Source: Candidatus Parcubacteria bacterium (lineage in GTDB: Bacteria > Patescibacteriota > Patescibacteriia > Patescibacteriales > UBA12075). Taken from it: DNA of 64,000 nucleotides. The position numbers and the translations under genes are program-made. Every line of letters begins with the position of its first letter. Position 1 is the stretch's first letter. The notes below the pieces were generated by a model, which was not told where the DNA came from, searched no databases, and saw only the letters and a program-made list of their open reading frames with translations. The stretch is taken from assembly GCA_023132155.1 (NCBI GenBank), contig JAGLYP010000023.1:11504-75503 (forward strand), given 5' to 3'. Positions 45,545 through 49,752 of this stretch are shown here, in pieces.

Positions 45545-47335
45545 TTATTTTTTCCTCTTCATCCTAACCCTCTCATTCTCGCTTAAATATTTTTTTCTTA
45601 AGCGAATATTTTTCGGAGTTATTTCCAAATATTCGTCATCGCTCATAACGCCCATTCCGCGCTCAAGCGTTAATTCAATCGGCGGAGTTAAGCGGATAGC
45701 CTCGTCCGCTCCGGATGCGCGCATATTGGTGAGCTGTTTGCCTTTTGTGGGATTAACTGTTAAATCATTACCTTTGGCAACATCACCGATAACCATTCCT
45801 TCGTAAACTTCCGTAGCGGCGGGAATATACAAGTTTCCTCTATCTTGCAGGTTAAATAATGAAAAGCCAAGCGTTTTACCGGTAGCCATTGATATCATTG
45901 ATCCGACTTCGCGCTTTTCAATTTTGCCGGCGTATGGCTTAAATCCGATTACGCGCGTATAAATTATGCCTTCGCCGCGAGTGTCAACCACAAATTCATT
46001 CCTATAGCCTAAAAGTCCGCGAGTTGGAATTTCAAAAATAATTTTCGCACTGCCGTGTTCCGGCTTCATTTCCAGCATATTTCCGCGGCGCTTGGAAAGT
46101 TTTTCAATTACAACGCCGGTCATATCATCAGGCGCGATTATTGTTACTTCTTCAAATGGTTCGTGTTTTACGCCGTCAATTTCTTTGATTATTACTTGAG
46201 GCTGGGATATTTGCAGTTCATAGCTTTCGCGCCGCATATTTTCCAAAAGAATTGCTATATGCATTTCACCCCGGCCGTAAACTTTGTAATGATCTACCGC
46301 GGAAAAGTCTATTTTTAAGCCGACATTAACTTCCAGCTCTTTTTCAAGCCTTTCTTTAAGCTGGCGGTTAGTAATAAATTTGCCTTCACGGCCGGCAAAT
46401 GGCGAGCTGTTTATTAAAAAATTCAAAGAAATTGTCGGCTTGTCAATATTTATAGCCGGCAAAGGTTCTTGCTCGCTATTTTCGCAGATAGTTTCACCGA
46501 TATAAATGTTAGGCAGGCCGCTCGTCATAATAATATCGCCGGTTGCGGCTGTTTTCACTTCTTTTCTTTGCAATCCTTCAAAGGTAAAGAGTTTTGAGAT
46601 TTTTCCGGTACGCGTATTTCCTTCATTGTCTTTTATAATAACTTGGCTTCCGGCTGCTATTTTTCCTTCATATACGCGGCTGATTGCCAGCCGTCCGAGA
46701 AAATTATCATAAGCTAAATTAAAAGGCTGTACGCGAAATGGCTTGTTTCCCGCTTCTTCGCTTGAAGCGACAGGAACTTTTTCAATAATTAAATCAAGCA
46801 GGGGCGACAAATTTTTGGAATCATCATTAAGATTTTTTTTGGCAATGCCTTTTTTCGCGATCGTATAGATAATTGAAAAATTTAATTGCTCGTCATTCGC
46901 GCCTAAGTCAAGAAATAATTCATAAACCATTTCTTGCGCTTCGTCCGGCCTTGCGGCCGGCTTATCTATTTTGTTAATAACTACAATCGGCTTTAAACCG
47001 AGATCAAGCGATTTTTTTAAAACAAATTTTGTTTGCGGCATCGGACCTTCTTGCGCGTCCACTACCAAAAGCACGGAATCAATTGATCTTAATACACGCT
47101 CAACTTCCGAGCCGAAATCGGCATGTCCGGGAGTATCAACAATATTGATTTTAGTATCTTTATAATTCACGGAAGTGTTTTTTGAATAGATTGTAATCCC
47201 GCGTTCTTGCTCAAGCGCGTCCGAATCCATGCTAACCCCTTCCGCCGCCATGCCCGTTTGTTGCATCAAAGCATCGGTTAAGGTTGTCTTGCCATGATCA
47301 ACATGCGCGACAATAGCGATATTTCTTATTTCCAT
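45545..47335 (-). CDS. typA: Translational GTPase TypA/BipA.
   Basis: [28 protein letters not shown]... matches the BipA N-terminus; the start is trimmed to the conserved Met. Confidence 0.9.
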
Positions 47336-47547
47336 AGTTTTTGATATAATTTGATATAAAATAAAAAACATACCCTTTTCAGTCAAGAGTATATTTTCTT
47401 GCTCTATTAAGTAAATTTACAATAGCATTTTTGGAAAAATTTGTCAAAAAAATAATTCAAAAATAGAGTAAAGAAATAAAAACGAGGCTACTAAAGTTTT
47501 TTAACCTGAGTAGCCCCTTTCACTAATAGTTGACGCAAGGATAGTTT

Positions 47548-47820
47548 TTAGGCTTTTGCAGGTGCCTTGGTTTCAATTGCTTTACTACCACCAGAACCGT
47601 AGGTCACCTTGAAAAAGTGGACGAATTTTTCGTTGAGAGGTTTTCCCTGAAAAATTCCTTCGCCCTTTTCGTATTTTAGGCACCATCCCTTAGAAAAAAA
47701 TTTTTGTGTCCATCCGCTTTGCCCATTTACTAACAAACATGTTGTTTTAACTGGTGGATTAAAACAATAGGTAGTATTTGGCACAAAGCCGCCCCTCTTC
47801 TCTTCTAGGCTAATAATCAT
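47548..47820 (-). CDS. Hypothetical 90-aa protein.
   Basis: ORF only; followed by the terminator hairpin GGCTACT...AGTAGCC at 47487-47517. Confidence 0.35.
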   Translation of the reverse strand: MIISLEEKRGGFVPNTTYCFNPPVKTTCLLVNGQSGWTQKFFSKGWCLKYEKGEGIFQGKPLNEKFVHFFKVTYGSGGSKAIETKAPAKA

Positions 47821-47853: not shown

Positions 47854-48581
47854 TTAATCCTCAAAACACATTGAAAAGTTGGCAGCAAGCGCCTCACTAG
47901 GCTGAAGGTAAATCCCATTTTTGGTATCAAATTCATGATATGAAAGTAGAGGTTCAACGCAAAAATATTTTTGTCTCCAATCTGTCCAGACGCAGACATT
48001 GCCTCTATTGAAGCCTTCGGCGAGTTCCATTCTGACCGTACCAATTCCGTTTAATTTTATAAGAATTGTGTCAGTTGCAGGAAAAACTTTTGGTCCATAG
48101 GCTTGCTGAATGACAATATCTGAAACATCGCTATTAACAAATTTCACTTCACCGCCATCGGGGGCGTTAAAGTATGGGTGCCAGCCGAGCTCAATGGGTA
48201 TAGGAATTTTTTGGTAACTAAAAATTTGGGTATTAATCTTAAAACAATTGTCCGAAATTAGATAAGACACATCGTAATCTATGATTACACCCCAATGACA
48301 ATATTCGTAATTAAAATTACACTCTTTATCGTCGAAATAATTATGACTCCAAAAAACATTTCGGAGTTCCCCGTGTTGAGGAGCAGAAGAAAAAATTCTT
48401 TTGCCTTCAGGTGAACCGAAAATTGGCGAACAGATATGCATCCCGCCGCGCATGACTACGCCGCTATCTTTATTAATTATTTGCTGAGGGTAAAAAAGTG
48501 TTTACTTCCCTTTTGGAGCGTGCAAGTTCTTGCTCCGGTGGATGATGTTTCAATGTGCGAATCCTTATTGTGCTTGTACAT
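47854..48581 (-). pseudogene. Frameshifted YeaD-like aldose/glucose-6-phosphate 1-epimerase family gene.
   Basis: The 199-aa ORF has RGGMHICSPIFG (compare AIRGGVPVCWPWFG), GWHPYFNAPDGG (compare HTYFN) and FCVEP. A 34-aa ORF with a Shine-Dalgarno sequence (48477-48581) supplies the N-terminus in another frame; the two join with a 1-nt change at the T6 run near 48497-48502. Confidence 0.55.
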
Positions 48582-48909
48582 GGCATTCTCCTTTCAAAAT
48601 AATATATTTATTTAAAAGTTAAACATAATTTTTGCCGATGATGACTTAAAAATATAGCACAAAAAATAATTTATGTCAAACAAAAAAAGTCAAAAAAAAG
48701 TCAATTTTTTGTTAAATAAAAACCAAAATAAATAAACCACCAACCACGCCACACGCACTATGTGGCGTGGTAAGGCAAGTAAAAATATGCCAAGATTAAA
48801 GCATTCGGGGTTTTATTGCGAAAAAGCCTGAAAATTCGTAAATTTTCAAAAATAACTCAAATAATTTTAATATTTTTTAAAAAGTATAATTGTATGCTAT
48901 AATATATAT

Positions 48910-49407
48910 ATGAGCAGAATAAATGAAAAAAAATATTATAATATAATTTTATTCTTTGCGAATAAGATTAAAAACGGAACTCTTGGAAAATTAAAAATGA
49001 TGAAGTTATTATACTTCCTTGATTTTGATTTTTTTGAGAAATATGGGAAATCAGTAACCGGTGATAAATATTTGCGTTGGGAAAATGGTCCTGTGCCGCG
49101 AAAAGCTGAACAAATAATAAAACAAATGAACGGTGTTGATATAAAAATATCAAAAAGAAAGGTAGGCAACGGTTATAATGACCAGCAGCACATTGAGGCT
49201 CTGAAAACTTTTGATTTAAATTTATTTTCAAAAGAAGAATTAATAATGATGGATGATATTGCCGATAAGTGGGAAAAATTTTCCGGCACTGAAATGAAAA
49301 ATGCCAGCCATGGCGAAGCTCCATGGATCGCGACAAAACCAAATGAAATAATTGATTATAATCTTGCATATTATCGCAATAAATACGGCGAAATGGATAA
49401 AGATTAA
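48910..49407 (+). CDS. Panacea-domain (DUF4065, SocA/GepA-like) antitoxin.
   Basis: GKLKMMKLLYFLDFDFFEKYGKSVTGDKYLRWENGPVP matches the Panacea core (LKLQKLLYYA...WKHGPV). Confidence 0.65.
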   Translation: MSRINEKKYYNIILFFANKIKNGTLGKLKMMKLLYFLDFDFFEKYGKSVTGDKYLRWENGPVPRKAEQIIKQMNGVDIKISKRKVGNGYNDQQHIEALKTFDLNLFSKEELIMMDDIADKWEKFSGTEMKNASHGEAPWIATKPNEIIDYNLAYYRNKYGEMDKD

Positions 49408-49416
49408 AAAAGCGGC

Positions 49417-49752
49417 ATGCTGATTATATATCATTGCGAAATCAACAAAGATTATAAAAATTTAAAGCGTTTTCCCGAACCAAAAAAGTCATTAGAGGCA
49501 TGGGGGCGCCTTTTTTGTTTAAAGGGATTAAGCGAGACTCCGGGCATTGAACAATACCCCGGTTTTGGCGGACGTAAAATATATAAAGCCAGAGTTGTGC
49601 CATTGAAAGAAAATTGCGGTAAATCAAAAGGATATAGATTAATTTTTCAATTATTGGGAAATGGAGATTTTGTATTTTTAGTTTTTTCAAGACACGGAAT
49701 TTATAATAGCGAGAAAGATTTAATGAATTTAATAAAAAATCGTATTTGTTAA
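49417..49752 (+). CDS. RelE/ParE-superfamily toxin-like protein.
   Basis: ...GYRLIFQLLGNGDFVFLVFSRHGIY... matches the yRiiY...v.il.i.HR..vY core of RelE/ParE-fold toxins. It starts 10 nt after the Panacea gene. Confidence 0.55.
   Translation: MLIIYHCEINKDYKNLKRFPEPKKSLEAWGRLFCLKGLSETPGIEQYPGFGGRKIYKARVVPLKENCGKSKGYRLIFQLLGNGDFVFLVFSRHGIYNSEKDLMNLIKNRIC

Follow-up and report, generated by a model that had tools for sequence, protein, structure and literature searches.

The DNA considered here is a stretch of 64,000 nucleotides (nt) from a Candidatus Parcubacteria bacterium (contig JAGLYP010000023.1 of assembly GCA_023132155.1), hereafter called the window. Amid housekeeping genes it carries, once, a pair of small genes, panA and panT, which a preliminary description had taken for a candidate toxin-antitoxin (TA) module of type II with the antitoxin gene in front. 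The two open reading frames (ORFs) lie on the plus strand where they had been placed, and the peptide strings quoted from them are present in their products. The distance between them had been given as 10 nt; from the panA stop codon to the panT ATG it is actually 9 nt. The features of the locus are as follows.

48876..48903, plus strand: promoter-like site found by a consensus scan (TTTAAA, 16-nt spacer, TG-extended TATAAT)
48910..49407, plus strand: panA, putative single-domain Panacea (DUF4065/SocA-like) antitoxin of 165 amino acids (aa), identified by PF13274
49408..49416, plus strand: 9-nt spacer AAAAGCGGC, without an obvious Shine-Dalgarno sequence
49417..49752, plus strand: panT, predicted basic 111-aa toxin of the RelE/ParE superfamily, HigB2/RelE-like by AlphaFold2 model, Foldseek and profile A2 (see below)

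Identical copies of both proteins are encoded on contig DAOVLK010000001.1 of GCA_030631305.1. There the toxin is still labelled 'hypothetical protein' by NCBI, so that a functional name would be a gain for annotation.

The Panacea core claimed for the 165-aa protein was borne out by a hidden Markov model (HMM) search. PF13274 (SocA_Panacea) matches residues 31-139 with E=6e-20 and 72.7 bits (cut-off 25.7), covering profile positions 2-112 of 113. Inside this core lies the motif G60-P61-V62, of which G60 and P61 are invariant across 29 PanA homologues and in the distant partners. GPV is the signature motif of Panacea and critical for neutralisation (Kurata et al. 2022, PMC8832971). With the NCBIfam equivalog for SocA (SocA_antitoxin, NF047745), PanA scores 20.5 bits where 190 would be needed (E=3e-4). 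Panacea is the only domain detected by the Pfam and NCBIfam scans, in which no DNA-binding domain was found either, and PanA thus falls into the class of PanAs with 'no N-terminal domain'. Its layout is simple: an N-terminal helix, the Panacea core and a conserved C-terminal tail (140-165), which extends beyond the Pfam envelope. The homologues form 530 clusters at 90% identity, and all of the 120 matches listed are at least 75% identical to PanA. In public databases the close ones are called 'Panacea domain-containing protein' or 'SocA family protein'.

The C-terminal region combines poor model confidence with strong conservation. In the AlphaFold2 model of PanA (predicted local distance difference test, pLDDT, 79) the core is confident and residues 133-165 are poor; despite this low confidence, the same residues are nearly invariant. 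The tail motif reads W139-I-A-T...I148-x-Y150...Y155-R156, with W139, A141, I148, Y150, Y155 and R156 invariant down to 36% overall identity, and it is also carried by the PanAs that accompany distant relatives of the toxin (36-45% overall identity). A Foldseek search of the PDB with the PanA model yielded no significant match; the best one, with a chain from the DarTG complex of M. tuberculosis (E=0.03, TM-score, i.e., template modelling score, 0.46), was followed by insignificant winged-helix proteins, and no conclusion is drawn from them.

The 111-aa partner belongs to a family of its own. Its homologues, 244 clusters at 90% identity, all measure about 110 aa, are mostly 60-86% identical to it and stem nearly all from Patescibacteria metagenome-assembled genomes (MAGs). 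An exhaustive profile search of 1.84 billion cluster representatives returned 35 clusters at E<=1e-3; the clade is thus small and isolated. The protein is basic (isoelectric point, pI, 9.6), and D12, K57, R59, E65, K69, G72, R74, R92, H93, G94, E99 and R109 are invariant in an alignment of 41 homologues. Among PDB sequences phmmer found no match, and PHROGs offered nothing useful. The distant members have sub-threshold Pfam matches, nearly all of them to the RelE/ParE clan: PF06296 (RelE), PF05016, PF05973 (Gp49), PF15781 and PF15738 (YafQ), with best E values from 1e-4 to 2e-3. When the toxin profile was broadened with these distant members (profile A2), the PDB search reached V. cholerae HigB-2 with E=1e-4 and E. 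coli RelE with E~5e-3.

The predicted structure points in the same direction. The AlphaFold model of the toxin is confident (pLDDT 90.9; predicted TM-score, pTM, 0.84) and has the topology of RelE, beta-alpha-alpha-beta-beta-beta-beta-alpha, with a C-terminal helix at residues 99-110. Its top Foldseek match in the PDB is HigB of S. pneumoniae (6af4; E=5e-4, TM-score 0.61, probability 1.0), and further confident matches are H. pylori HP0892, M. tuberculosis HigB1, YafQ, YoeB and V. cholerae HigB2. All of them are mRNA interferases of the RelE family; for HigB, HP0892, HigB1, YafQ and YoeB the Foldseek probability is 0.96-1.00. BrnT appears lower in the list with a weak score, and ParE structures are absent from the top 50 PDB matches.

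Aligned through profile A2, residues R59, R74 and H93 of the toxin fall on R51, R64 and K84 of V. cholerae HigB2 (VcHigB2), the alignment being weak in the region of Y82. R51, R64 and K84 are active-site residues, and replacing them by alanine lowers activity 170- to 3000-fold (Hadzi et al., PMC5416850). The sole dip in confidence of the toxin model is a Lys/Gly-rich beta2-beta3 loop at residues 62-72. Its counterpart in HigB2, a disordered basic loop, is thought to contact 16S rRNA (PMC5416850).

Judged from its model and profile, the 111-aa protein is thus a putative toxin of the RelE/ParE superfamily that is recognised by no current Pfam model. Its place in the RNase (HigB2/RelE) branch is derived from the confident model with its HigB, YafQ and YoeB matches, from the A2 profile and from the invariant residues aligned with the active site. 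The preliminary description had based its call of a RelE/ParE fold on motifs; profile and structure now back this call, with the refinement that the toxin resembles the RNase branch rather than ParE.

How regularly do the two genes travel together? With each GTDB species represented by a single genome (185,579 species genomes), scanning revealed 62 toxin loci, mostly in Patescibacteria. About 60 of the 62 have a co-oriented PanA orthologue directly upstream, and in most loci the spacer measures some -11 to +19 nt, if apparent overlaps due to upstream start calls are ignored. This adjacency, together with the PanA HMM match and the structure and profile of the toxin, upholds the candidate type II module with the antitoxin first. 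The exceptions are L058, which is cut by a contig edge, L066, and L074, an Anaerolineae relative with 29% identity. At L074 (2685-3288) the toxin gene is preceded by an overlapping small ORF of 85 aa without similarity to Panacea, a hint that partners are swapped at the margin of the toxin clade. In five cases out of five, a distant toxin relative (25-46% identity) adjoins a Panacea gene. For two of them (31-33% identity), L097 (2501-3395) and L099 (1505-2376), the Panacea gene is convergent and lies downstream, the genes being 1 nt apart or overlapping by 22 nt; toxin-antitoxin pairs are not usually arranged in this way.

The neighbourhoods of the orthologous pairs are mutually unrelated. Genes for a resolvase, a helix-turn-helix (HTH) protein, a methyltransferase and MazE surround the pair at L006 and L007, a Bro-N gene and bipA at L009, and an EcoRI-type methylase and a GmrSD/HNH gene at L012. 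A check for absence of the pair from close relatives had been proposed in the preliminary description. The pair was not found at 22 metagenome loci with Na+/H+ exchanger relatives (53-73% identity), but none of the window's other neighbours is there either, and these loci are therefore uninformative on insertion.

The module is not confined to bacteria. At L056 (2497-6327) genes for archaeal-type uS12, uS7 and aEF-2, each exceeding its NCBIfam cut-off, follow immediately 3' of the pair, which makes this a genuine archaeal contig. At L073 (738-5245), labelled Aenigmatarchaeota, the module is flanked by an HsdM-like gene and by a gene resembling prenyltransferases of the GGGP geranylgeranyltransferase type (NCBIfam, below cut-off). 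The copies at L056, L073 and L070 share a PanA of 164 aa in which LGPVP replaces NGPVP, and they may form a distinct sub-clade. Some taxon labels of MAGs look unreliable. Thus, the module of L039 (labelled Pacearchaeota) is identical, including its upstream sequence, to that of L036 (labelled Patescibacteria UBA6102), and the 'Nanoarchaeota' bin C4_metabat.bin.115 encodes a PanA of bacterial type on L045, with another of its contigs (L058) bearing a second toxin copy that is truncated at the contig edge.

Purifying selection acts strongly on both genes. The dN/dS ratio (nonsynonymous over synonymous substitution rate) is about 0.13 for the toxin and about 0.08 for PanA, as calculated from the measurable pairs (15 of 1770 locus pairs), dS being saturated or not computable in nearly all others. 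The divergences of PanA and toxin correlate with r=0.66. The GC content of the module tracks that of the host (r=0.82, slope 0.61) and is on average about 4 points lower. The preliminary description had called the stretch compositionally odd. With 31.4% GC in the module, 36.2% in the window and 23% in the intergenic stretch upstream of the module, a modest oddity indeed exists, but it is a mild one, since it fits the general pattern of modules lying below their hosts. Recent horizontal spread was considered as the main cause of the high conservation and was rejected because of the saturated dS and the tracking of host GC.

As to expression, the TG-extended TATAAT box scored 10/12, the TG included, in the consensus scan and ends 6 nt before the ATG of PanA. 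TGnTATAAT boxes just 5' of the PanA start recur at many orthologous loci, without Shine-Dalgarno sequences; the promoter count of the region as such does not exceed the shuffled expectation. The recurrence suggests a self-contained promoter, which by its sequence would give rise to a bicistronic mRNA that is leaderless or has a very short leader, since the box ends so close to the start codon. Translation of the toxin gene is likely coupled to that of panA, in view of the 9-nt spacer without an obvious Shine-Dalgarno sequence. Inspection by eye of the aligned upstream regions of the orthologous loci revealed no conserved operator palindrome.

The two genes share a reading frame: their starts are 507 nt apart, and a stop codon plus three codons divide them. 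A fusion by stop-codon readthrough was rejected, because spacer lengths differ at other loci and the shared frame is accordingly not conserved. Another candidate that did not survive is a terminator-like hairpin with a T-run inside the toxin ORF (49494-49513, about codons 26-35, in the conserved LEAW-RLF region); it is at chance level, with 1 found and 1.0 expected.

The reading we favour, and consider rather probable, is a two-gene PanA-toxin (PanAT) module of type II, in which PanA neutralises a ribosome-dependent mRNase of the RelE/HigB2 type by direct binding. The free toxin would most likely enter the ribosomal A site and cleave the mRNA being translated, by means of a RelE-like basic set of R59, R74 and H93, together with R92 or Y96. 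The single-domain PanA encoded upstream would keep it in check through protein-protein contact. We infer this direct binding from published work on PanAT complexes and on protease-independent neutralisation: complex formation is known for five PanAT pairs, and neither ClpXP nor Lon is needed for neutralisation in the validated pairs (Kurata et al., PMC8832971); single-domain PanAs neutralise their toxins directly (PMC10440598; PMC11782079). Other PanAs make use of linear N- or C-terminal elements, e.g., Phd-C (PMC10440598). By analogy, the invariant tail of low model confidence is a candidate for the neutralising element: the flexible segment of about residues 133-165 could plausibly fold onto the toxin, with the Panacea core binding in addition or instead. 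An extended -10 promoter of its own would drive the pair, and the product would probably be a leaderless bicistronic mRNA whose two ORFs are translated in a coupled manner.

Several observations weigh against this reading. The 111-aa toxin by itself has no match in Pfam, NCBIfam or PADLOC, and the core-family profile (A1) finds none in the PDB; the link to RelE depends on the broadened profile and on a predicted structure with a moderate TM-score of about 0.6. The preliminary description had proposed HMM searches for both domains and had regarded missing matches as evidence against the pairing. PanA has its match (PF13274); a superfamily HMM match of the toxin was missing from Pfam and NCBIfam, and only the family profile and the fold make up for this failure. 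In the active site, the position of the VcHigB2 Y82 is taken by serine (S91) in the core clade and by tyrosine in distant clade members; from the alignment, the invariant R92 and the near-invariant Y96 are candidate substitutes. PanA has a pI of 9.0, unlike the acidic profile typical of antitoxins. Its lack of a DNA-binding domain leaves classical autoregulation unexplained, and the module thereby departs from the classical type II arrangement, in which an antitoxin with such a domain autoregulates the operon. Many PanAs are devoid of an HTH domain (PMC8832971). Finally, the degree of conservation across the phylum is atypical for TA modules. Mean pairwise identity amounts to 73% for PanA and 62% for the toxin, and where the window is compared with L017 or L021, PanA (78-81%) and toxin (66-69%) are more similar than BipA (47%).

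Could the toxin poison DNA gyrase, as ParE does, and be bound by PanA all the same? RelE and ParE share their fold, which by itself does not give the function (PMC10440598), and the C-terminal helix of the toxin is also seen in many ParE toxins. The weak Pfam matches of family members are, in addition, mostly to PF05016 (ParE_toxin) and PF15781 (ParE-like_toxin). PF05016 is a broad RelE/ParE model, and its name cannot discriminate between RelE and ParE function. With every confident Foldseek match being an mRNase and ParE missing from the top matches, with profile A2 hitting HigB-2 and RelE instead of ParE, and with invariant basic residues at the catalytic positions of RelE/HigB2, a gyrase poison appears highly improbable. 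The other question concerns PanA. In Caulobacter SocA, which is itself a Panacea-domain protein, acts as a proteolytic adaptor of type VI, and PanA might similarly hand its toxin to ClpXP instead of sequestering it. The weak SocA_antitoxin match (E=3e-4) would fit, and the two modes are possibly not mutually exclusive (Kurata et al., PMC8832971). The bit score far below the equivalog cut-off, a toxin unrelated to SocB and the ClpXP/Lon-independence of the validated PanAT pairs, five of them in stable complexes (PMC8832971), make such an adaptor improbable in the present case.

Two further alternatives concern the role of the pair. It might be an anti-phage switch for abortive infection, in which the globular Panacea domain would set the RNase free on sensing a phage trigger; this would leave the chemistry of the favoured reading untouched. 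A sensory role of Panacea has been hypothesised by Ernits et al. (PMC10440598), PanA matches the phage protein families phrog_1281 and phrog_10390, and some loci sit among defence or mobile genes, such as those mentioned for L012 (EcoRI-type methylase and GmrSD/HNH), for L006/L007 (resolvase, methyltransferase and MazE) and for L073 (HsdM). On the other hand, there is no PADLOC match, no toxin copy was found on IMG/VR viral contigs, the neighbours in the window are housekeeping genes, and long-term purifying selection and GC tracking fit long residence and not the turnover of an arms race. We therefore regard this role as doubtful, if still worth consideration. The same conservation invites the idea of a domesticated, non-toxic pair with a housekeeping task, e.g., ribosome-associated regulation in ultra-small symbionts, instead of a selfish TA module: dN/dS is low for both genes over many Patescibacteria lineages and into archaea, the antitoxin-like partner is the more conserved one, and bipA is nearby in three genomes. 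Yet the pair is patchy (62 of 185,579 species genomes) and occurs in variable contexts, the toxin copies at L020 and L068 are truncated, and the retained residues of catalytic type suggest an active nuclease; we give little credence to this idea. A bolder proposal is that the RelE-like clade with the GKSxGYR motif is dedicated to Panacea partners that bear the particular invariant C-terminal tail. Its conservation far exceeds that of typical TA modules and, between the same genomes, that of BipA, and it is found both in Patescibacteria of the candidate phyla radiation (CPR) and in genuine archaea, which are probably DPANN. The module could accordingly span two domains of life and be selected for a task in the cells of ultra-small episymbionts. 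This we hold to be unlikely. If true, it would mean more than a merely selfish addiction cassette, e.g., dormancy control targeted to the ribosome, or defence.

The combination of PanA with a toxin of RelE/ParE type, and its gene order, are already catalogued, and the module is not new in kind. ParE and PemK domains are among the known partners of PanA (Kurata et al. 2022, PMC8832971). The part of their Dataset S1 (PNAS) covered here describes cluster T14, HigB-2-like toxins of methanogens and Cryosericum (HHpred 99.7%), T28, YoeB/ParE-like toxins of Proteobacteria, T48, Txe/YoeB of Rickettsia, and T59, RelE/ParE of haloarchaea; all four, drawn from RefSeq and predicted by bioinformatics, have the antitoxin-toxin (A-T) order and are marked 'notest'. 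With these clusters, as described there, the present module shares a single-domain PanA upstream of a small RelE/ParE-type toxin, separated by a short spacer or overlapping. It differs from them in that its toxin clade matches no Pfam model and its hosts are Patescibacteria, of which no entry was found in that part of the dataset.

Among the characterised systems, VcHigB2-HigA2 (PDB 5JA8/5JA9/5JAA) provides the best profile match to the toxin (E=1e-4). VcHigB2 cleaves mRNA in a ribosome-dependent manner, has an active site like that of RelE and shares with the toxin the fold, the basic Gly/Lys-rich beta2-beta3 loop, the C-terminal helix and putative equivalents of R51, R64 and K84. The differences are equally clear: in the Vibrio system the toxin gene comes first, the antitoxin is not a Panacea protein but the HTH protein HigA2, whose binding element is N-terminal and disordered, and Y82 stands against S91 of the core clade. 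E. coli RelBE is antitoxin-first, too, and the GYR strand of the toxin aligns to residues 56-85 of RelE, including R61 (E~5e-3). RelE cleaves mRNA in the ribosomal A site; its sequence similarity to the toxin is marginal, and RelB is a ribbon-helix-helix DNA-binding antitoxin. HigB of the S. pneumoniae HigBA system (PDB 6AF3/6AF4), to which the toxin model is structurally closest, is 15-18% identical to the toxin and is paired with another type of antitoxin. Caulobacter SocAB (type VI) has the same Panacea domain in its antitoxin, but SocB is unrelated to the toxin and SocA works through ClpXP; PanA stays below the SocA equivalog score and has no SocB-type partner.

What is new is an apparently separate toxin family that Pfam leaves unclassified, that resides in Patescibacteria and also on an archaeal contig, is unusually conserved and is accompanied by a Panacea-specific tail. 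A RelE/HigB2-like family is thereby added to the partners of Panacea (about 244 toxin clusters and 530 PanA clusters, both at 90% identity), and the range of PanAT is extended to Patescibacteria and archaeal contigs. Tiny genomes make the accessory modules they retain informative. A pair so highly conserved, with candidate catalytic residues in one partner and a candidate neutralising tail in the other, would also be a good model for the way Panacea may handle a toxin of RelE fold.

The surroundings of the pair call for a few remarks. In three genomes the gene bipA (typA) is no more than about 1.5 kb away from the module, namely in the window (45545-47386, minus strand), at L017 (118-1914) and at L009/L021 (3453-5276), each time in a different arrangement; by a rough estimate some 0.5 cases would be expected by chance. 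Other translational GTPases flank the module at L056, L033 and L059. A general enrichment of the module near translational GTPases was rejected as unconvincing overall, with bipA alone giving a weak signal. The proximity to bipA is possibly due to chance or to a preferred region of insertion.

A decayed epimerase gene had been reported next to the pair, and this is partly borne out. The aldose 1-epimerase ORF (47854-48453, minus strand, 199 aa) covers only positions ~60-176 of 299 of the Aldose_epim profile, and its in-frame upstream sequence (48454-48620) is interrupted by three stop codons; the gene hence looks N-terminally truncated or decayed. Beside it, a 90-aa ORF (47548-47820, minus strand) has no family match. 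Scans of the locus for Rfam families and tRNAs found nothing. The divergent, AT-rich intergenic region upstream of panA contains a perfect GC-rich inverted repeat of 11 bp (48743-48771, ACCACGCCACA-N7-TGTGGCGTGGT). It is without an Rfam match, unique in the window and otherwise present only on contigs of the same genome, and its folding has a z-score of -3.4. Read along the minus strand, the repeat has a T-rich run 6 nt behind it and may thus be an orphan or antisense terminator.

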